DNA of 64,000 bases from Dictyostelium discoideum (taxonomy: Eukaryota), in the NCBI GenBank assembly GCA_000004695.1, contig CM000151.3:7552001-7616000 (forward strand), given 5' to 3'. Under the pieces are notes generated by a model that made no database searches, had not been told where the DNA came from, and saw only the letters and a list, made by a program, of their open reading frames with translations. A program made the position numbers and the translations under genes. Positions 31,829 to 57,442 of this stretch are shown piece by piece (position 1 is the stretch's first letter; the number at the start of each line of letters is the position of its first letter).

Positions 31829-32574
31829 ATTTATTTTATTTATTTATTTATTTATTTATTTATTAATTTATTTTTATTTATTTGTTAATTAATAGGGATA
31901 AAATTAAAAATGAAAATAATATTTTTTTTTAATAAATTACTCTATAAAAAATCAACCTTAAATTTAAATGATAACCAATGTTTTTTAAATTAATATAAAA
32001 AAAATTAATTTAAAAACATTAAATATTATTAAATTTTATTAATAATAAAACACGAAAAATACTAATAATTAATAAAACTAATAAAAGAATTATTTATAAA
32101 TTACCACCAATGATTGAAACCGAATTGATAATTTTCTTTTTTAAACATTTTTATGGAGATAAAAAAAAAAATAAAAAAAAAAAAAAAAATAAAAAAAAAA
32201 TATAAAAAAAACAGATATAAAATAGAACAAATAAGAAAAAAAAAAATTAATTAATTAATTAAAATAATGAAAAAGTGTTTTTAAAAAAATGACAAAGTGT
32301 TTTTGTTTTAATTATGATAAATTAATATTATTTTAGATATATTTTTTTTATTTTTTTAATTTCAATTTAAATTACAAATCATACATTATATTGTTCATCA
32401 GTTGAATTTTCTTACATAATTGCATAAACATCTTGCATAAATAATTAAAAATAAATAAAAAAACAAAAAGTGTACACATTGTGATTTTAAATTTTAAATC
32501 TTTATTTAATTTTATTTTATTTTATTTTATTTATTTTTTTCTTTAATTATTAAAAGTTTATCCAATTAGGATAG

Positions 32575-32690
32575 AATTAAAAATTGCAGGCCGAATTGTT
32601 TCGGACTGCGTTGTGGAATAGTTTGCAAAAAGCACTAACAGTGGATCCCTTATCGGTCACGCCCTACTGCTTTGGTCCCAGCGTAAAGAC
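32575..32690 (-). ncRNA. Candidate small non-coding RNA gene: a GC-rich island of about 110 nt in AT-rich intergenic DNA, with a DUSE-like upstream element
   Basis: The plus strand has ggccgaattgtttcggactgcgttgtgg...ggatcccttatcggtcacgccctactgctttggtcccagcg. On the minus strand the motif TTGCCCATAAC (plus 32745-32755) lies about 60 bp upstream of the island. The minus-strand transcript would end ...GGCCTGCAATTTTT (a T-run). It contains the local hairpin CCGAA-TTGT-TTCGG. Confidence 0.3.
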
Positions 32691-37218: not shown

Positions 37219-39516
37219 TTATTTGTTAATTTTTTTTAACTTGTTTAAAAGAACACTTTCACCTTTTTTACGATAAATTAAAAAACCAATTGCACCAATT
37301 GCGGAAACACCAACAACACTTGCAACTACAGCGACTGGGATAACATAACTTTTTCTTCCATCTTTTGAATTACCACATTCATTTTTAAATTCTGGACTAA
37401 TTAAGACTGAGAAATCTGGATCAATGATACAAGATTCAATGCAATGTGGTAAATCTAATGAAATTGAAATTGAATCCTTACTTTCATTTTTCATTGAAGT
37501 TAATAAATATGTTGGTCTTCCGTCTGAAACTAACTTGTTTATAAATCTTCCTTCTAAAATTTTATTATTTTTTGAAATTTTAATATAATTGAAAGTAGAT
37601 TCACCATCTTTATTATTGATTGTATTAATTGATGTATCCATTTCATTACATTCATTATCATCTGAATTTATTTGATCTACTGATGAAACTAATTCTAATT
37701 TTAAAGTATTTAAGTTATTTTTGTATGAATAGTTATAAATTCCAATACTAAATTTAATTGAACCATATTGTAAATTAAATGTTTCATCTGCAAATGTATA
37801 TTCTTTACCATTTCTGTTTGTAATTTCTTCAATCTTTGAAATAATTGAGCAATTGCTTTGAATTGTTTGAGATAATGTGTAAATAATTTCATTTTTGCTG
37901 TTTGTTGAATTTGTTGTCCAATTGTTTCGAAGAGAATATGTTGCTACTATATTACCATTAAAATCAATTTCGTATAATGATTTGAAAAAGATTTGGAATT
38001 GAACTTCTTGATTTGAAATTGTTGTATTACCAGTACCTGGATCGACACCAGTATCAGTTGGTGGGTTTCCGTTATTACCTCCATCGCTATCGCTATTGCT
38101 TCCTCCGTTATTACCTCCGCCTGGATTAATGATACCACTACAATCTGCACCATTGAATCCATTATTACATTTACATTGACCATTTAAAGTATTGCATGTA
38201 CCTTGATTTGAACATTTATTTGGACATGTTTGGTTATTAATATTTAAATATTGATATTTATCATAAGAGTATGTAATGTTATTTTGAGTTACAACTACAA
38301 GCTTTACACCAAAACCTGGAGGTGCTGTACAATTTAAAACTGTTGTTGAATTATATAGTAATGGACATGGTAAATTTCCAATTGTGATTGATAGATTATT
38401 ATGAGTATCACCAAAGAAGCCAATAAAGCTTGCAACACCACCATTGGTTGTTGAAGGTATTGTTGAAGTTATATAATGGTATGGTATTAAACAAGTTGGA
38501 CCTGACCAAGAATTTTCTTTACAATTGCATTCACCTTTAGTTGTGTCACATACACCATTTGAATTACAATCTAGTGGATCACACTCAATAAATAATATTG
38601 AACAATCACTACCTCGATGAGATGAATCACAAATACATTCACCTATGGTAGTATTGCAATAACCATTACCTGAACAATCTGGAACTGAACATTCAATACC
38701 TAAGCAATCACTACCTATAAATCCTGGTAAACATTTACAAGTACCTGAACTTAAATCGCAAATTGAATTAACTCCAACTGATGTTGAACAATCATTTGGA
38801 CAAACTTGATTATTATCGAAATTTGATTCGATCTTAATATATGCTTTTACATTGAATGAATCTTTTTCAATTGAAATTATTTGTAATGGAATTGTTGAAT
38901 TTGAAATTGGTAATTGTTTACCACTTTCCATTGTACATTGTGCTCCGAAAAAGTCACTACTTGTAATTGTTGAACAATTACCTACATTTTGAATTTGAAC
39001 TTGTTGATTTGTAAATCCTAAATAACTTGAAAAATGTGTACCACTTACTTGAATTTCATTACCTGTGCTTTTAATTAAAACTGATTTTATAATTGGTGGA
39101 ATATTATAATTTGTTGGGAATGTATATGTAACATTATTTGGAGTTGTGAATAAAACTGGAAAATATTCAACATTTTTCAAATTATTATTAGCTCCTACCA
39201 TTGTTGCTGTATAATTTTTACCATTTTGATTAATAACATATGTTGTTGGATCTAATGAAATTGTTAAATTAATTTTCCATAATGTTACATCGAATCCAAT
39301 ATCATTACCAGTTACCATTACTTTATTAAATATACCATCATTAATTAATTCTACTTTTGGTCTAAATGTTGTGCATGGTGTATTTGTATTAAAGTTTGAA
39401 AACTTATTACTAGCAAATCTTGAAAACATTGATTTTTGTGTTAATTTTGAATAACTATTTACTGTTGTTACATTAAAATAACATGCAAAACAAGATGGAA
39501 CTAATCTGAATATTTG

Positions 39517-39583
<67 letters not shown>

Positions 39584-41090
39584 ATTAATAAAAATAAGAA
39601 TTATGATAATAAAGAAATAATAATTAAAACCATACCCTGTTAAATTTCCCAGTGAAACAGCTATTTCAGTTGTGCACCATGATTTATCAATTGTGCCAGT
39701 AAATTTGGTTGTTCCTGTAAAATCAAATGAACCACCAGAACCTAAAAAAGGAGGGAATTGTTCACTTTTTATTGAATTTTGAAAATTTGTTGTAATATCT
39801 GGATTAAAATTTAGATTGTTTGGGAAAACTGTTAAATAACCTCCTATAAAGGATATTTCAATATTCTTTGGAACAATTAAGGGAAATGATCCATTGATAT
39901 TAAATGATGTCCCAGGAACCAATGTAATGGATTTATAAGTGTGGTTTTTAAATAATGTTATATCAAAGAATTCCTTTGGTTTCTTGAATATTGCTGAAAC
40001 ATATATATAAGGAATAATAGAATTATCAAATATATATTGATCTAATGTAGCATTTTGATTGAATGTATCATAGATTGTTAGCATTCCTGATTGATCAGTA
40101 ATTTGTAATTTCTTTAAAAATGAAATAGTTGAGTAATCAAATCTTGGAGAAATTTTAAATGTAACACCTCTTAATTTTTTATAACTTGATAAATCTGATA
40201 TACTATTCAAAGAAATTCTAAAATTTGTTAAGATTGATGATTCATCTGAATTTGCTCCATCTGTATTTAAATAATAATAACTATCAGATGAAAACATATT
40301 TAATGAATATGTAACTTTATCTAAATACTGCATTCTAAATATTGTATTATTTAAGTCATCGCTAAATAATTCACTTAAAATTATTTATTTTTGAAAAAAT
40401 TAAAATTATTTTAATATTATATATATATATATCTATGTATTAACATATAAAACAAAAATTATATTTTACATTAATCTATATGCAGGTAGAGGTTGTGTAA
40501 TTCCACCTAATATTCCAGAAATATTTGAATACCTTACTGTATTGGCAGCTGGAAATTTGTAATATATAAAATTTGGGGTCACTTTTAAATTTTTAACTAT
40601 TCTAAAATTATTATTTAATTACTATTAATATATTTTTTGGAATTATTTTTGACTAAAAAAAAAAAAAAAAACATACAATTCATCCATTTGAGGAAAGCAA
40701 TTTACAAAATTTAATGGGTCTAATATATTATCTGTTCCACCACTATTCAAAGCTAATCTAAAAAAAAAATAAAAAAAAAAAAAAAATAAAAAATTATTAG
40801 TTAATAATTTAAAAAAATCTAATTATTATATTTTAAATAAAAAAAATGAAATAAAAATAATTAATTTACGTTTTAATATTTAGATTGGTCGTGCAAACTA
40901 TATCAGTATTAGCGGTTGTACATATATCAACATATTGGTTATTGGTATCTTTGGTGAATTTTAAAAGGTTATAATCTTGTATCAATGTTGACAAACAATT
41001 ATATTCACTCGGAATAGGATTGACTGATAAACAACCAATAAAATTTAAAAATATTAAAAAAAGTAGTAATTTAAATTTTAACGAAATCAT
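37219..41090 (-). CDS. Type-I transmembrane glycoprotein with a signal peptide, a large N-terminal extracellular region, tandem EGF/laminin-EGF-like Cys repeats and a single C-terminal transmembrane helix. Five exons: complement(join(37219..39505,39636..40373,40470..40601,40677..40757,40870..41090)), about 1152 aa
   Basis: The signal peptide is MISLKFKLLLFLIFLNFIGC. The EGF-like units are CxCxxxxxGxDC. The transmembrane segment is YVIPVAVVASVVGVSAIGAIGFLIYRKKG. Minus-strand donors GTAAAT(40869), GTATGT(40676), GTAAAA(40469) and GTATGG(39635), with the corresponding AG acceptors, give a total of 3459 nt in frame. Confidence 0.65.
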
Positions 41091-46465: not shown

Positions 46466-46517
<52 letters not shown>

Positions 46518-48197
46518 TAAAAAAAAAAAAAAAAAAAACCTTTCTAATATTCAGATGACTTTTTAATATTGATTAAAAAAAAAAAAAAAAAAAAAAAACC
46601 TGTTACATTGGGATGACGAAAAAAAAAAAAAAATAAAAAAAAAATAAAATTAATTGGTGAAGTGTTGTCTGGTTTTTGAATGGTTGGTTTTTAAAAAAAA
46701 ACGAAGAAAAATGCATTTTTTTTTATTAAATGTCAAAATATCTTTAAAAATATCTTTTTTTCATTTGATTTCGTCGATGATGTTTTGATTTTTTTTTTTT
46801 GTGCGTCAAAACGATCGTTCTTTTTTTTTTCCAAGCATTTCATAGAACGATTGTTTTTGTAAATTGGTATTTTTTTTTTTTTATTTTATTTTAAACGAAT
46901 ATGAACCAGTTTAAAAATTTCCTTTGATACCACCTGTTGACTGTTGTTTTTTTTTTTAAAAAAAAAAAAGATATTTTTTTTTTTCCATTATTTTCAATAT
47001 TAATTCTTAAAATATTTTTTTTTTTTTTTTTTTTTTTATTATTATTGAAAACTAAATAAAAGAGTATTTAATTTTTGGGGGAAACTTATATTTTTTTTTT
47101 TTTTTTTTTTTTTTTCCAAACAAAAATATTTTTTCCTAAAAAATCAAAAATTTTTAATAATTTGAAAATTTCCCCAAATTTTTTTTTTACAAATTTCCCG
47201 GGGGAAAAACCAAAGTATAACAATTTTTCGGGTATAGTATGGGGAGTTCCCCAAACTTTCCCCCCAATTAAATTTTTCCTAGTAAATCCTTTTTTCTAAA
47301 AAAAAAAAAAAAACCCAAAATTTTGCTTTGGGAAATTAATTTTTTAAAAAGTTTTATTTTAGTATCACTATTATTTTTAAGTTTTCTAAACAAAAGGGTT
47401 GTATTTTTATCCTTTTTAAAAATATTGGTTTTTTTTTTTTTTTTTTTTTTTTTTGATCAAATTTTTTTTTTTCTTGTTTTTTTAACCAAAAAAAAAAATA
47501 AAAAAAAAAAAATAAAAAATAAAAAATAAAAAAAATGGATTTTTTTTTTTTTAATTAAAATCTTTTTAAATTGATTCAACTTATTGCTTGGTGATTAAAT
47601 TAGATTATTTCGCAATTATTTTCTAGTATTGAAAATTAATTTTAATTTTTTATACTTTTTAAAAAAAAACAAAAAAAAAAAAAATAAATTAAAATTATTT
47701 TCAATTGATTTTTGGGGGTATAAATATCTTTTTTTAATTAGACACACATTTCAAAACATAAATGGCATCTTAAAAAAAAAAAAATAATAAAAATAATAAA
47801 AAAAATAAAACTCTAATTCGCAATAATCCTCCTATTTCAATATTAATATAACATAATAATACAAGCTTATTTTTAGTTTTTTTAATATAACCTTAGTAAT
47901 AAAAAAAAAAAAAAGATATTTTTAATAAAAAAAAAATCTAAATTTATTTTTTTATTTTTTTTATTTATTTTTTTATTTTTTAAAGGTGGGTCTGTTAATT
48001 TTTTTTTTTTTTTGAAAATAATTAAACAATAAAAACACTTTTTTTTATTTTTTATTTTTTTTAAATTAATTACAACAAAAAAAAATAAAAAATAAAAAAA
48101 AAAAAAAAAGAAAAATTCGAACCCCTTTTATCTTTTGAAAGTAAATTAAAAAAAAAAAGTGTTTATTTTTAACTATAGCATTAACCTTTTTTAAAAA

Positions 48198-49184
48198 ATG
48201 GTATGGAATAAAAAAAAAAAAAAAAAAATAATTATCATAAAATATATATATGTACTAATTTATTATTTATTAAAAATATATATAGGTAGAATTTACATTA
48301 TTAGAAGATGATGTTTATTTCCATGATTATATAGCAGATTTCATTCCTTTATTTGTATTATCAATTTTACTGGAATTTGTTATAAATGTATTTTTTAAAA
48401 AGAAAAAGAATTATCACTCATTAAGTGATTCATTAAGTAGTATGGGTACAGGTATATCAACAGTAGTTTTAGAAAGAATTGTACCATATACAATTTTATC
48501 ATCAATTGAATTTGTAGGTGCCGTATATATTTATAAACATTATAGATTTTTCGATGTTTCCGAATCTTCAATATTAGCCTGGATAATTTGTTTACTAGCT
48601 GTTGATTTTGTTTATTATTGTAAGTTTTTATATTTTTAAGTTTTTATATTTTTATATTTTTAATGAGGAAAAGAGTGTGTTGTGTGTTGTGATAATATAT
48701 ATAAATTACTAACACATATGTGTTTATTTTATTTTATTTTATTTTTTTTTTTAAAAAAAAAGGGTTTCATAGATTTGCACATGAAATTAATTTTATGTGG
48801 GCAACACATGTTACACATCATTCAAGTGATAAATATAATTTAACAACAGCATTAAGACAAAGTATATTTCAAATGTATTTCTCATGGGTATTATTTTTAC
48901 CAATTGGATTTTTCATACCACCAGGTATTTATGTATTTCATAAACAATTCAATACAATCAATCAATTTTGGATTCATACACAATTGATTGGTAAATTAGC
49001 ATGGCCAATTGAATTTATAATGAATACACCATCACATCATAGAGTTCATCATGGACGTAATCCAAAATATTTAGATAAAAACTATGCTGGTACATTAATA
49101 ATTTGGGATAGATTATTTGGAACATTCCAAGAGGAAGATACTATCACCAACACCACCACCACCACCACCAACACCACTGGTGAA

Positions 49185-49246
<62 letters not shown>

Positions 49247-49889
49247 AAATCAACGTGTTTTCTATGGGTTAGTACACCAATTTGAATCAAGTGATCCAAC
49301 ATGGTCACAAGTTCATCATTGGTTTGAAATTTATGAAAAACAAAAACAATATAACTCGGTTAAAGAGAAATTGAAATCAATTTTCTATGGGCCAGGTTGG
49401 AAAAAAGGTGATACCAATAGAATGGGTGATTTATCAAGTATTCCAATACCAACTGAAAAAGATGACCAATTACGAATTAAAGCATCATTATCAACATCAT
49501 TAAATATTTATTTGTTTATTCATTATTTTTTAGCATCATTTTTAGCATTGTCATTACGTTCACTATTTGAGGATAAAATTGGATCTGCAAATGTAACTTG
49601 TTCTTTTATTTTCGTATATTTCGGTTTAACTTCATTTGGTGCAATCTTTGATAGAAAATGGTATGCAATGATATTAGAACATTTTAGATTATGGTCTTTC
49701 ATTCTATACACTCTGTACTTAGAATCAACCAATCCAATCATATCTCAACAATTTCAAATCATCTCACTATTAAGATACATTTATTTCGTATCTTCATTAT
49801 TTTTAATTTTAAAGAAATTATCACCTTTATCAATTCTATCAAATTATTTAAAATCTTCAAAGAAATTATTAAATAATAAATTAGATTAG
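48198..49889 (+). CDS. Alkylglycerol monooxygenase (TMEM195/AGMO)-like fatty-acid-hydroxylase-superfamily protein: join(48198..48200,48286..48619,48763..49889)
   Basis: Strong alignment to human AGMO: DYIADFIPLFVLSILLEFV; VDFVYY|WFHRFAHEINFMWATHVTHHSSDKYNLTTALRQS; FWIHTQLIGKLAWPIEFIMNTPSHHRVHHGRNPKYLDKNYAGTLIIWDRLFGTF. The His-box motifs HVTHH and HHRVHH are present. Donor GTAAGT at 48620. The acceptor aAG ends at 48762 and regenerates Trp. The proposed first exon is just ATG(48198) followed by GTATGG, with the acceptor at tatAG(48285). Confidence 0.75.
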
Positions 49890-49972: not shown

Positions 49973-51585
<1,613 letters not shown>

Positions 51586-52053: not shown

Positions 52054-52789
52054 TTAATCATAACCAACTGGAATCATATCAGATAAAACTTCTTCTAAAA
52101 CTACTTTAATTTCTGAAGTTGAATCATCAGATAAAGTACATTTAACAAAAGTGCATTTAACTTTCATTTGAACCATTTCCAAAGCACCTCTCATTACACC
52201 ACATAGAATATTTGAATAGTAGAGTTTATGTTTATATTGATCTGGTAATTCGACGAAATCAATCAATGGATTATCTTCAATTGTTAAATGGAATTCCTTT
52301 CTATTTGCATCCCAATCACCAACATGAGCATTTACACCTAAAAACATTTTAAAACCAACTTTTGCAATAACTTCTGCTGTCTCTATAAAATCTGAACATC
52401 TACCAATACCTGATTTTGCTAAAAATTCTTCAATTAAACGAATTCCTATATTATATCCCATTTGTTCTAATTTTATATTAACTTGTTCAATATCTTCATA
52501 ATCTTTTATTAATTGTGTAACCAATGCTCCATATGTTAATGTGAATAATTCTGAATTCTATAATTTATTTAATTAATTAATTAATTAATTATGATTTTGA
52601 GATAATAAAAATAAAAATAATAATAATAATTTTTAAAAAAAAAAAAAAATAGTAATTAAAAATAAAAAAAAAAAATAAAAAAAAAAAAAAATGAAAATGG
52701 TAGCATATTTTTAAAAGAATTAAATCAACTTACAATTTTTTCAACTTTATTGAATACATCATTTCCTAATTTATCGTATTTTTTACTCA
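52054..52789 (-). CDS. trappc3: TRAPP complex subunit Bet3 (TRAPPC3): complement(join(52054..52557,52734..52789)), with a 1-nt phase inconsistency at the splice
   Basis: Exon 2 gives NSELFTLTYGALVTQLIKDYEDIEQ...GIGRCSDFIETAEVIAKVGFKMFLG...NPLIDFVELPD...NILCGVMRGALEMVQMKV, a very strong Bet3 match. Exon 1 is MSKKYDKLGNDVFNKVEK, with the canonical donor GTAAGT at 52733. The acceptor TTATAG ends at 52558. Confidence 0.7.
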
Positions 52790-53968: not shown

Positions 53969-56900
53969 ATGGAAAATAATAATTCCAATAATAATAATAA
54001 TAATAATTTATCAACATTAAGAAAATCAAATATTAATGGTGGTAATTCAAATATAGTTCAAAGTTGTTTATCATTTTTACATAGAAGTTTATCAATAAAG
54101 AAATGGATTGAAAAGATATTAGGAGAGAAATTAAGTGAGGATCATCATGATGATAATGATGGACTGTTATTATTTGGTAAATTAATGAACGGAGTTGTAT
54201 TATGTAAATTAATGTCATGTTTAAAGAGTAACTCAATTCCAAAGATACACACTGGTGAAAGTATTTTAAATTTTAAAATTAGGGAAAATCTTTGTTTCTA
54301 CATTCAAGCATTGGAAGATATTGGTATTAGTAGACATTTTCAATTCCAAGTACCAGATTTACTAGAGAAAAAGAATTTACTTAAAGTATTGGAATCATTG
54401 GAAGTTTTAGCAGATGATTGTACAGACTTTGAAAAACCAATAGAATTATCCGATGAAGAATCATTATTAATTCAATTCACTGATAAACAATTATCAGACA
54501 CTGAACAAATCTTAAAGAAATTAAATGTAACTCATATAAAAAGACAATCACTTAAAAAGTTAACTTCAAATGAACCAAAAAGATTCACAACTTCTGGTAC
54601 AACTTTATCACATTCAACTGGTAGTAGATTAACATTTGGTGGTGGTAGTTCAAATTCTTCAACTGGCAATAGCAATGGCAGTAGCAGTGGCGGTGGTAGT
54701 AGCTTATCTCATTCTGGTGGTGCTCCTCACTCATCCTCAACTCCTTCTTCTTTATCCTCGTCTAGTAATGGTGGTAGTGGTCTAACACAATCTGGTGGTG
54801 GTAGTAGAACATTTCAAACTAGAATTGTGTCAACACCAGCAAATGTTAAACCAAAAGCACCATTATCAGTTGCACAAATTTTGGATAAAGCAAGACCATT
54901 TGAAAAGAGATGGATAAAGATTCAAGCATTCTTTAGAGGACATTTAGCAAGAAAAGCATATCAAAAACGTGTTAGATTTGCAGCATACAGACATAACATT
55001 GTCAAAGAGTTATTAGCAACTGAACAAGTTTATATAGATAGTTTAGATCATGTAGTGGCACATTATTTCAATCCAATGCGTGAGGAATCCTCAAAATTAA
55101 ATATTAAACTGGATCATTTCGGTTTACTAATTTCAAATCTTGAAGTCATTATCAACTATAATAAAAATCTATTACAAAATATTAAACCAAAAGTTGAAAA
55201 TTGGTCACATTCTCAAACAATTGGTGATATTTTTGAACAATTTGTAAAGTATTAAAAATATACAAAAAACCCAAAGAAAACACACAAACACTCATACTAA
55301 TTTTTATAATCTATTTTTTTTTTATTTATTAGACACTTTACTTAAAAGTTTATACTCAATATGTTAAAGAGTATAGTATTTTCTTTGAAGCAATTAATAA
55401 TTTACGTAAAAGTAATACTAAATTCGAATCATTTATAGTTGAAAAAGAATATAATGATAATTATAAATCAATTGGAACTTATTTAATTTTACCAATTCAA
55501 AGAATTCCAAGATATACTTTATTATTAACTGTAAGTTTATTAATTATTAAATTATTTATTATTTTATTATTTTATTATTAATTATTATTTTTTTGTTTTT
55601 TTATTTATTTTTTTTTTTCAATAGGAATTATTAAAAAATACATGGAGTGATCATTTAGATTATAATAATTTACAATTATCATTAAAAAAGATGCAAGAGG
55701 TTGCATTATATGTAAATGAAAAAAAGAGAGAGGCAGAGAATATTGCAAAAGTAACAGAGATTCAAAATAATTTCATTGGTAAATTTGAAAACCTTGCTGA
55801 ACCACATAGAAGATTTGTATTTGAAGGTCATCTAAGTGTTATTGGTCCAGGTGGTAAAGAATCACAAAGAGTAGTTTATTTATTTAATGACGTTTTAATT
55901 AGTACAAAACCAATTACAAGTGGTTTAGTAAAGAAAAAAGTCTCTTTAAAAGTTAAAGAGTCAATTAGAATGAATTTGGTTACAATAAAATCAAAATCAA
56001 ATAATAATAATAATAATAATATAGAAAATAGCGAAAATAATAATAATAATAATAGTAATAATAATATAGCGAATAATAATACACCAACGAAAATATCATC
56101 AACACCAAAATCATCATCAGCATCATCTTTATTAAGTAATTCGACACCATCTTCACCATCACCATCAACAACCAACACTACAACGAATACACCACAACCA
56201 ACACCAACACCAATATCATTATCATCATCAATGCCATCACAACCAACAAAACCAACAACATTGAAACCAGTACCACCACCAAGATCACAAGCAACTTTTA
56301 ATGTTACTTCACCAACACCAAATCCAACAACAACAAATCCAACAACAACAAATCCAACAACAACAAATCCAACAACAACAACAACAACAACAACAAATAA
56401 ACCAACAATTGGTGTTAAAACATCATCATCATCAATAACAATATCAAGTACAAATAAAGAAGTTGTTGAATCAACAAAACCAAGATCATCAACGACTGTT
56501 GTAAATAATAGTACAAATATTAATATTCATAATCAAATTAGACAACCAACACCAATTGCATCAGTAACGGCATCAAGTTCACAAGAGAGATTAATCATTG
56601 AGGAGAAGATGAAAAAACAAAATCAAACCATTGAATTAATTGATACTTTTGGTACTTGTGTATTAAAATTATTATGTTCATCAGTTAAAGAGAAAGATCA
56701 ATGGGTAAGTGAAATTAAAAAAGTTTATGAAGATTTAGATAATAAGAAAATTATAAATGATGAAGCAATGAAAAGATCACAAGAAAGAGCAGGTCTTGCT
56801 AAAGCTGCCTTATCACAACAATATGCTACTTTACGTGTTAAAGGTAGATTATGTGATTTAAATACTTTAAAAACTAGTATAAATCAAGAAGAAGATGGTA

Positions 56901-57442
56901 GTAATAATAGTAATAGTAATAATAGTAGTATTAATAATAGTCCAACAACATCATCACCAATTGTAAATAGTGTTAATGGTAGTGGTAGTGGTAGTGGTGG
57001 TGGTGGCGGTAGTGAACAACAGGATGGTTCTACAAGTAATACAACAAATACAAGTGGTGAAAGAGAATTTAATGTTTTAAGAAGACAAACTTTATCAGCA
57101 AGAAGATCTCAAAATAATGCAACACCACCCCCACCACAATCACAATCTACCACTACTGCCAATACCAACACCACCACTACCAATGATAGTGCAAGTGATC
57201 ATAGTGATACTGATGAAAAGAAAAATGAAAAATCACATTCTAAAACTGGTACAGGTTGGTTCTCATCTTTAAGAAAGAAAAAGAAACATCCAAGTATTCA
57301 AGACACTTTTGGTCTAGATACTTCACCAATTACACCTTCCGATATAAAATCTTCTACCTCAACAACAACACCACCAACTTCAACTTCAACTTCAACTCCT
57401 CCACAATCAAACACTGTAATTTTAAAGCAAGATAACTTGTAG
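53969..57442 (+). CDS. Rho-family guanine-nucleotide exchange factor with CH (calponin-homology), IQ, DH and PH domains plus a long S/T/N-rich tail: join(53969..55243,55333..55530,55625..57442)
   Basis: CH domain: KWIEKILGEKL...LLFGKLMNGVVLCKLM...ENLCFYIQALEDIGI. IQ motif: IQAFFRGHLARKAYQKRVRF. DH domain: RHNIVKELLATEQVYIDSLDHV...TIGDIFEQF|TLYLKVYTQYVKEY...LILPIQRIPRYTLLLT|ELLKNT. PH-like region: FVFEGHLSV...VVYLFNDVLISTKP. Donors GTAAAG(55244) and GTAAGT(55531); acceptors tAG(55332) and tAG(55624); all phase 0. Confidence 0.75.

Follow-up and report, generated by a model that had tools for sequence, protein, structure and literature searches.

In human alkylglycerol monooxygenase (AGMO, also TMEM195), mutagenesis has shown that the eight His residues of the di-iron centre and Glu137, Gln162, His201, Asp233, Asn235, Tyr236, Trp243 and Asp244 are important (PMC3304488). 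Replacement of Glu137 with Ala raises the Km for tetrahydrobiopterin (BH4) 18-fold, and an acidic residue next to the second His is reported only in AGMO among the enzymes with fatty-acid-hydroxylase motifs (PMC3304488). The Physarum genome paper stated that AGMO is 'regularly found only in animals' (PMC4758236), and the searchable literature discusses no amoebozoan AGMO other than AGMO1a and AGMO1b of Physarum polycephalum. Here we analyse an AGMO-like gene at positions 48198-49889 (+ strand) of a 64-kb stretch of Dictyostelium discoideum DNA (assembly GCA_000004695.1, contig CM000151.3, 7,552,001 to 7,616,000), referred to below as the window. On the evidence of sequence we conclude, with a probability of about 0.82, that this gene is a D. 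discoideum-type AGMO/TMEM195 orthologue with three exons, the first coding exon of which is the ATG only, as a preliminary description of the same DNA had proposed. Start-codon introns are an established class across eukaryotes (Nielsen & Wernersson 2006, PMC1626468), so the anatomy of an ATG-only exon is not unusual.

The window DNA is very AT-rich, of D. discoideum type, and the locus shares 95.8% nucleotide identity with the assembly of a D. discoideum wild isolate. The spliced coding sequence of the three exons is 1464 nt and encodes 487 aa (Table 1). The anatomy given in the preliminary description (ATG followed by GTATGG, an 85-bp intron and exon 2 from 48286) was found in every element at the coordinates it had named. 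The G+C content is 24-27% in the exons compared to 8-15% in the introns, and both introns have GT-AG ends and a TACTAA(T/C) motif. The TACTAAT of intron 1 is a putative branch point, judged by the canonical TACTAAC consensus, and ACTAAT is also present in intron 1 of D. discoideum ACTFIR. The primary transcript would be spliced at 48200^48286, a phase-0 start-codon intron, and at 48619^48763 to give a 487-aa polytopic membrane protein with the predicted N-terminal peptide M/VEFTLLEDDVYFHDYIADFIPLF... Exon 2 is predicted to code for the first four membrane helices.

To the 5' side, the frame of exon 2 is closed directly by the TAG of its own acceptor (48283-48285), and exon 2 has no in-frame ATG before 48442 (M54). 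The length of intron 1 is not a multiple of three, and the unspliced reading from the ATG is a frame-shifted, Lys/Ile-rich peptide of 37 aa that stops at TGA 48309-48311. ATGGT occurs once, at 48198, in the 886 nt before exon 2 (47400-48285). It was also present in ~8% of shuffles of the 300 nt preceding exon 2; at this chance per shuffle the case from a single genome is weak evidence, but the site is kept in four genomes. No other upstream ATG with a phase-compatible GT donor was found within ~1.5 kb, the sole extra donor being 48252, which would leave a 34-nt intron.

Annotated orthologue proteins were mapped back on their genomic loci, and eight other dictyostelid loci were fetched. A start-codon intron is annotated in D. 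discoideum ACTFIR (ATG/GTATGG, 90 bp), D. firmibasis (ATG/GTATGG, 98 bp) and D. purpureum (ATG/GTAATG, 76 bp), and in all three exon 2 opens with GT(A/G) GAA TT. The D. firmibasis annotation was built with developmental transcriptome evidence using MAKER2/Trinity (PMC11193728). Public annotations of the sister genomes already hold the same three-exon model, under uninformative names. The orthologues of T. lacteum (ATG GTC ACT) and P. violaceum (ATG GTT TCT) have no intron at this position and a Met-Val start, and those of A. subglobosum, C. fasciculata and H. album start with Met-Gly or Met-Ser, again with no intron there. In-frame stops lie upstream of the start in all five orthologues from other dictyostelid groups, and the homologous upstream start position is used in all of the other dictyostelid orthologues fetched (8/8). 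Intron 1 is 71% identical to that of D. firmibasis, compared to 90% for the adjoining exon, and 81% identical to that of ACTFIR, with indel differences between the strains.

We then compared the codons ahead of M54 with the rest of the gene. Codons 2-53 differ from D. firmibasis by 12 synonymous and 4 non-synonymous changes, with a ratio of non-synonymous to synonymous rates (dN/dS) of 0.054; the corresponding values are 0.039 for the catalytic core and 0.129 for the C-terminal part. Against D. purpureum, codons 2-53 gave a dN/dS of 0.26. Selection on codons 2-53 is purifying and resembles that on the rest of the gene. In a first alignment covering dictyostelids, animals, fungi and one bacterium, P22, F24, E31 and D49 were invariant. 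Hydropathy analysis placed the strongest hydrophobic segment of the protein at residues 20-38, ahead of M54, and this is the first predicted membrane helix. Together, the start scan, the purifying selection before M54, the intron in three other group-4 genomes and the Met-Val starts of intronless orthologues support the ATG-only first exon.

The family of the protein was examined by a homology search over 5.8 billion proteins, from which the best ~120 matches were considered. Ranks 1-10 were dictyostelid orthologues named 'hypothetical', 'fatty acid hydroxylase domain-containing' or 'SUR2-type hydroxylase/desaturase', the 'SUR2-type' names being due to resemblance in the PF04116 core. From rank 11 to ~120 the named matches were alkylglycerol monooxygenases of animals, Capsaspora and early-branching fungi (36-41% identity, E ~1e-91 to 1e-78), interspersed with bacterial homologues of similar score, some named 'sterol desaturase'. 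SUR2, sterol C4-methyl oxidase, C5-desaturase and FA2H were all absent from the 120 best matches. BLASTP, which the preliminary description had named as a check against human AGMO, gave 39% identity to gibbon AGMO over 436 columns (E 2e-93), collinear over residues 15-446. The same description had the gene matching the human N-terminus, which was not borne out: the BLASTP alignment starts from query residue 15 and primate residue 38, MAFFT sets V2 opposite approximately residue 29, and similarity starts at about human residue 30-38.

Pfam PF04116 (FA_hydroxylase) matched residues 100-233 over the full length of the profile (E 1.2e-29, 103.8 bits compared to a cutoff of 31), and PF24858 (AGMO_C, AGMP_C) matched residues 359-440 (E 1.1e-4, 22.6 bits). 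Of 16 aligned family members, 14 had a PF24858 match at E<=0.01; the 16 comprise the window protein, dictyostelid orthologues, and animal, fungal and bacterial AGMO-like sequences. The AlphaFold model of a 99%-identical isolate protein (P0001) is confident, with a predicted local distance difference test score (pLDDT) of 89 and a predicted template modelling score (pTM) of 0.87. Its long helices span residues 16-38, 47-66, 70-87, 97-120, 149-182, 337-365, 367-388, 394-415 and 417-445. This arrangement of five N-terminal and four C-terminal helices agrees with the hydropathy peaks and fits the nine segments proposed for human AGMO.

In the 16-sequence alignment the di-iron His set H115, H119, H128, H131, H132, H205, H208 and H209 is invariant, corresponding to human H132, H136, H145, H148, H149, H221, H224 and H225. 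Q145, H184, D217, N219, Y220, W227 and D228, the equivalents of human Gln162, His201, Asp233, Asn235, Tyr236, Trp243 and Asp244, are all conserved. With Glu120 added to these eight His and seven further residues, the window protein keeps 16/16 mutagenesis-defined residues of human AGMO. Glu is present at the E120 column in 63 of 71 family sequences. The AGMO/TMEM195 signature with its His boxes, which the preliminary description had called unmistakable, is thus upheld by the PF04116 match, by the best non-dictyostelid matches being AGMO and by the retained residues.

A tail-to-tail CHMP7-like neighbour is kept in 6/8 of the other dictyostelid loci fetched, which supports one-to-one orthology within dictyostelids. 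As a side observation, the annotated H. album protein PPL_09368 (L008 2063-2299) has 372 aa and is ~50 residues short, lacking the equivalents of Gln162, His189 and His201. A coding exon was probably skipped in this public model, since an unusually long 237-bp 'intron' lies at the spot of the missing residues. Horizontal transfer was also considered. In a rough midpoint-rooted neighbour-joining tree the dictyostelid clade adjoins presumed bacterial homologues, but the tree is uninformative on vertical or horizontal origin because three monophyletic groups make the outcome root-dependent.

Dictyostelium lipid droplets contain monoalkyl-diacylglycerol, the organism also has ether-linked phosphoinositides and phosphatidylethanolamines (PMC7375469), and it makes BH4 and the more abundant D-threo-BH4 (PMC4133852). 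The preliminary description was therefore correct that the organism makes both ether lipids and tetrahydrobiopterin. Phenylalanine hydroxylase is its sole pterin-dependent enzyme known so far, and it has no nitric oxide synthase (PMC4133852). On the model of the homologous mammalian AGMO, the eight His residues would hold a di-iron centre, which a tetrahydropterin bound near Glu120 would reduce by supplying electrons. The predicted alkylglycerol monooxygenase would hydroxylate the ether-bonded C1 of 1-O-alkylglycerols or lyso-alkylglycerophospholipids, and the unstable hemiacetal would yield a fatty aldehyde and the glycerol moiety. Such an enzyme could serve as the catabolic exit for the abundant ether lipids of the amoeba. 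A further suggestion, which we consider tentative and on balance unlikely, is that D-threo-tetrahydrobiopterin (tetrahydrodictyopterin) is the natural electron donor of a functional dictyostelid ether-lipid monooxygenase. If true, this pterin, so far with only an antioxidant role, would gain its first dedicated enzyme, and pterin metabolism would be tied to the turnover of inositol and ethanolamine phospholipids with ether linkages, which phagocytosis requires.

Translation might instead start at ATG 48442 (M54), the first in-frame ATG of the continuous open reading frame (ORF), with the preceding 156 nt as 5' untranslated region and the upstream ATG/GT as the kind of coincidence expected in ~8% of comparable 300-nt AT-rich stretches. 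This is very unlikely given that codons 2-53 are conserved as coding sequence, that their four invariant residues extend from dictyostelids to animals, fungi and a bacterium, and that each of the eight orthologues starts at the homologous upstream position; loss of the first membrane helix would also invert the topology of the catalytic domain. Phase-0 ATG...GT pairs at 46680/46683, 46711/46732 and 48198/48252 would permit a start codon from a more distant upstream exon (ATG/GT 46680, ~1.6 kb away) or read-through to the second phase-0 donor at 48252. We regard both as highly improbable. The distant starts require a ~1.6-kb intron beside the 5' end of a divergent ComC-like gene, a length far above that usual for Dictyostelium introns, and the 48252 donor would add 17 non-conserved Lys/Ile-rich residues before its 34-nt intron, whereas the Met-Val N-termini of orthologues fit the 48198 model exactly. 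Inactivation by the (AAT)20 expansion, leaving a decaying or non-functional copy at this locus, is scarcely credible. The Asn20 run is indeed found only in this strain among six D. discoideum-clade sequences, but the ORF is intact with the repeat in frame, dN/dS against D. firmibasis is 0.04-0.13 across the gene, and the insert falls within an already variable loop modelled with low confidence. Poly-Asn tracts are commonplace in Dictyostelium proteins.

With the gene model correct, the protein could still be a fatty-acid-hydroxylase-superfamily enzyme acting on another substrate, as a sphingolipid or sterol hydroxylase or desaturase, and not a pterin-dependent ether-lipid monooxygenase. The names of the orthologues ('SUR2-type hydroxylase/desaturase' or 'fatty acid hydroxylase domain-containing') point this way, as do the close bacterial homologues, whose function is not assigned and some of which have Gln replacing Glu, and AGMO function in amoebozoans is predicted from sequence. 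Several observations weigh against our identification of the gene as an AGMO orthologue with an ATG-only exon. The PF24858 score of 22.6 bits is below the 28.3-bit gathering score, and HEINFMWATH agrees with the animal consensus around Glu137, H-E-[ILV]-N-I-[FILM]-W-A-[AG]-H, at only 8 of 10 positions; both of these also favour another substrate. The closest relatives of Physarum AGMO1a and AGMO1b are Capsaspora and a primate, not Dictyostelium (PMC4758236), so the dictyostelid clade is divergent. No report of dictyostelid AGMO activity was found in the searchable literature, and the cofactor may differ from the mammalian one since the dominant Dictyostelium pterin is the D-threo isomer. The donor GTATGG differs from GTAAGT at +4 and +6, and the splice junction 48200^48286 is a predicted one. 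The exact 487-aa product has no identical entry in the protein collection, the closest being a protein of 467 aa from a D. discoideum isolate, which lacks the Asn run. Nevertheless, a different substrate appears improbable: the best matches outside Dictyostelia are AGMOs (among the best ~120) and are collinear over the full length, including the C-terminal membrane domain, the AGMO-specific Glu and seven further essential residues are all kept, and both the ether-lipid substrate and the pterin cofactor are present in the organism. Collectively, these results favour a three-exon AGMO orthologue.

Gain of the start-codon intron at an ancestral ATG/GTN site in the group-4 Dictyostelium lineage is the most likely history, because ATG-GTN is contiguous in orthologues of other dictyostelid groups. 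The YYW-codon intron is common to D. firmibasis, D. purpureum, P. violaceum and A. subglobosum and is older and more widely shared than the start-codon intron; its length differs between strains through GT and TTTTA repeats. A further intron lies after conserved E-K-Y codons (window 48830-48845) in T. lacteum, P. violaceum, A. subglobosum, C. fasciculata and H. album (loci L004-L008). It is absent from group 4 (window, D. firmibasis and D. purpureum), which has the start-codon intron instead, and the comparison of gene structures indicates that group 4 lost an E-K-Y intron kept by all other groups. The 5' end of intron 1 (GTATGGAAT..., window 48201-48215; D. purpureum GTAATGTAGAATTTC, L003 1504-1521) resembles the reconstructed contiguous start ATGGTAGAATTT, and the acceptor/exon-2 junction ATAG/GTAGAATTT (window 48280-48297) is one insertion away from it. 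These resemblances hint that a local duplication of the ATGGT(A/G)GAATT start region may have given rise to the intron in the group-4 ancestor. In a simple edit-distance scan the 5' copy had no score within 4 edits and was not significant. Intron gain by tandem duplication was set aside, as ATAG acceptors are usual in this AT-rich genome and the 5' copy is unsupported.

The preliminary description had also placed a long (AAT)n-encoded poly-Asn run inside the C-terminal domain. The run is present, but it lies in a 38-residue insert (residues 238-275) ahead of that domain (residues 359-440). The insert is part of a linker that joins the core to the C-terminal part, with FGTFQEE, the last catalytic-core motif, immediately preceding it and VFYGLVH following. 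Five other D. discoideum-clade proteins have no Asn run and have Thr runs that vary in length, and the whole insert is absent from D. firmibasis, D. purpureum and beyond the D. discoideum clade. The corresponding loop is the sole low-confidence stretch of the P0001 model (pLDDT 53-70). We read the Asn20 run as a strain-specific trinucleotide expansion in a disordered loop, which should be neutral for catalysis. We also considered the poly-Asn region as an unannotated intron and rejected this, as the tract keeps the frame and splicing to the next AG downstream would remove the conserved VFYGL motif. The Thr and Asn runs (49145-49244) are length-polymorphic in D. discoideum-clade genomes, with inserts from DTENED to the 38-residue tract, and are a small example of in-frame microsatellite variation within an enzyme loop.

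Table 1. Positions in the window of the features of the AGMO-like gene.
Feature	Position	Strand	Description
Exon 1	48198-48200	+	ATG start codon alone; A-rich context TTTAAAAAATGG; GTATGG directly 3'
Intron 1 (start-codon intron)	48201-48285	+	Phase 0; 85 bp; 8% G+C; GTATGG...ATATAG
Branch-point-like TACTAAT, intron 1	48253-48259	+	27 nt before acceptor
Exon 2	48286-48619	+	Codons 2-112 and first base of W113; starts GTA GAA TTT, reads VEFTLLEDDVYFHDYIADF
Fatty-acid-hydroxylase catalytic domain	48580-49124	+	PF04116; spans intron 2
Intron 2	48620-48762	+	Phase 1; 143 bp; 15% G+C; GTAAGT...AAAAAG; within Trp codon of YYW/FHR
Branch-point-like TACTAAC, intron 2	48707-48713	+	50 nt before second acceptor
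Exon 3	48763-49889	+	Continuous ORF, rest of W113 to D487; TAG stop 49887-49889
His box HRFAH	48768-48782	+	
Glu120	48783-48785	+	Equivalent of human Glu137
His box HVTHH	48807-48821	+	
His box HHRVHH	49035-49052	+	
Thr/Asn-rich insert	49137-49250	+	Residues 238-275; lineage-specific, 38 residues
Thr-coding (ACC/CAC)n run	49145-49177	+	Tandem Repeats Finder (TRF)
(AAT)20, perfect	49185-49244	+	TRF; codes N254-N273
C-terminal membrane domain, AGMO_C-like	49500-49745	+	PF24858

The CHMP7-like gene (49973-51585, - strand) has Snf7 and CHMP7 winged-helix domains and ends 83 bp from the AGMO stop codon; beyond it lies a separate ORF for a TRAPP component (52054-52524, -). In the D. discoideum ACTFIR annotation (L001 4741-7451) the region is one 680-aa product with TRAPP, Snf7 and CHMP7 domains, apparently two genes fused in annotation, since in other species CHMP7 is a separate protein of 467-531 aa. 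On the other side are two tandem ComC-like genes (37219-40333 and 41644-~46450, both -) with LRR_ComC, two beta-sandwich domains, EGF repeats and a ComC supersandwich domain. The second is divergent from the AGMO gene, across ~1.7 kb of intergenic DNA with an (AAT)n run at ~46466-46515. A U4 spliceosomal small nuclear RNA gene (32559-32690, -) was the sole Rfam match in the 64-kb window (RF00015, 52.3 bits, E 8e-9, full-length model match), with none in or near the AGMO-like gene, and a tRNA scan of the window found none. Two further ORFs (53969-55255 and 55691-57442, +), with CH, IQ and RhoGEF domains followed by a PH domain, are probably one multi-exon RhoGEF gene.

Full-text literature searches found no paper linking AGMO or TMEM195 with Dictyostelium. 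Judged at the level of homology, the present result correctly assigns an uncharacterised protein to an enzyme family already known, with a gene structure of an established type, and is not surprising. Neither the AGMO identity nor the ATG-only exon overturns current understanding; the value is in annotation and in a reasonable knockout target. A clear orthologue across all Dictyostelia would extend the AGMO family to a haploid, genetically tractable organism. With abundant ether lipids, BH4 together with its D-threo isomer, and one other known pterin-dependent enzyme, Dictyostelium is a good place for AGMO knockout and cofactor-specificity work. The ATG-only exon is chiefly of practical importance, as the true start would escape gene finders and cloning based on ORFs, and the first membrane helix would be cut short.

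Compared to human and mammalian AGMO (EC 1.14.16.5), the window protein has predicted N-terminal membrane helices, an eight-His fatty-acid-hydroxylase core and a predicted C-terminal four-helix membrane domain in the same order. It differs by the Thr/Asn-rich insert and a longer Lys-rich C-terminal tail, and its natural cofactor might be D-threo-BH4 (dictyopterin) rather than L-erythro-BH4. Animal AGMO has ~25-35 extra N-terminal residues that the window protein lacks, and the window protein deviates from animal AGMO at two positions of the Glu137 motif and in a C-terminal domain scoring below the Pfam threshold. SUR2, sterol C4-methyl oxidase, C5-desaturase and FA2H share the PF04116 core and the HX4H / HX2HH / HX2HH di-iron motif, but SUR2-type and related enzymes have neither the acidic residue after the second His (PMC3304488) nor an AGMO-type C-terminal domain. 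Physarum polycephalum is likewise an amoebozoan with AGMO, the BH4 pathway and phenylalanine hydroxylase (PMC4758236); that paper reported no Dictyostelium AGMO orthologue, and Physarum AGMO1a and AGMO1b are compared here by their published description. As in the start-codon-intron class (PMC1626468), the first coding exon of the AGMO-like gene ends with the ATG, and a phase-0 GT-AG intron comes next. Conserved proteins that are short and rich in Lys, ribosomal proteins among them, are over-represented in that class, whereas the gene described here is predicted to encode a 487-aa membrane enzyme, and its intron is phylogenetically young, being found in group-4 Dictyostelium only.

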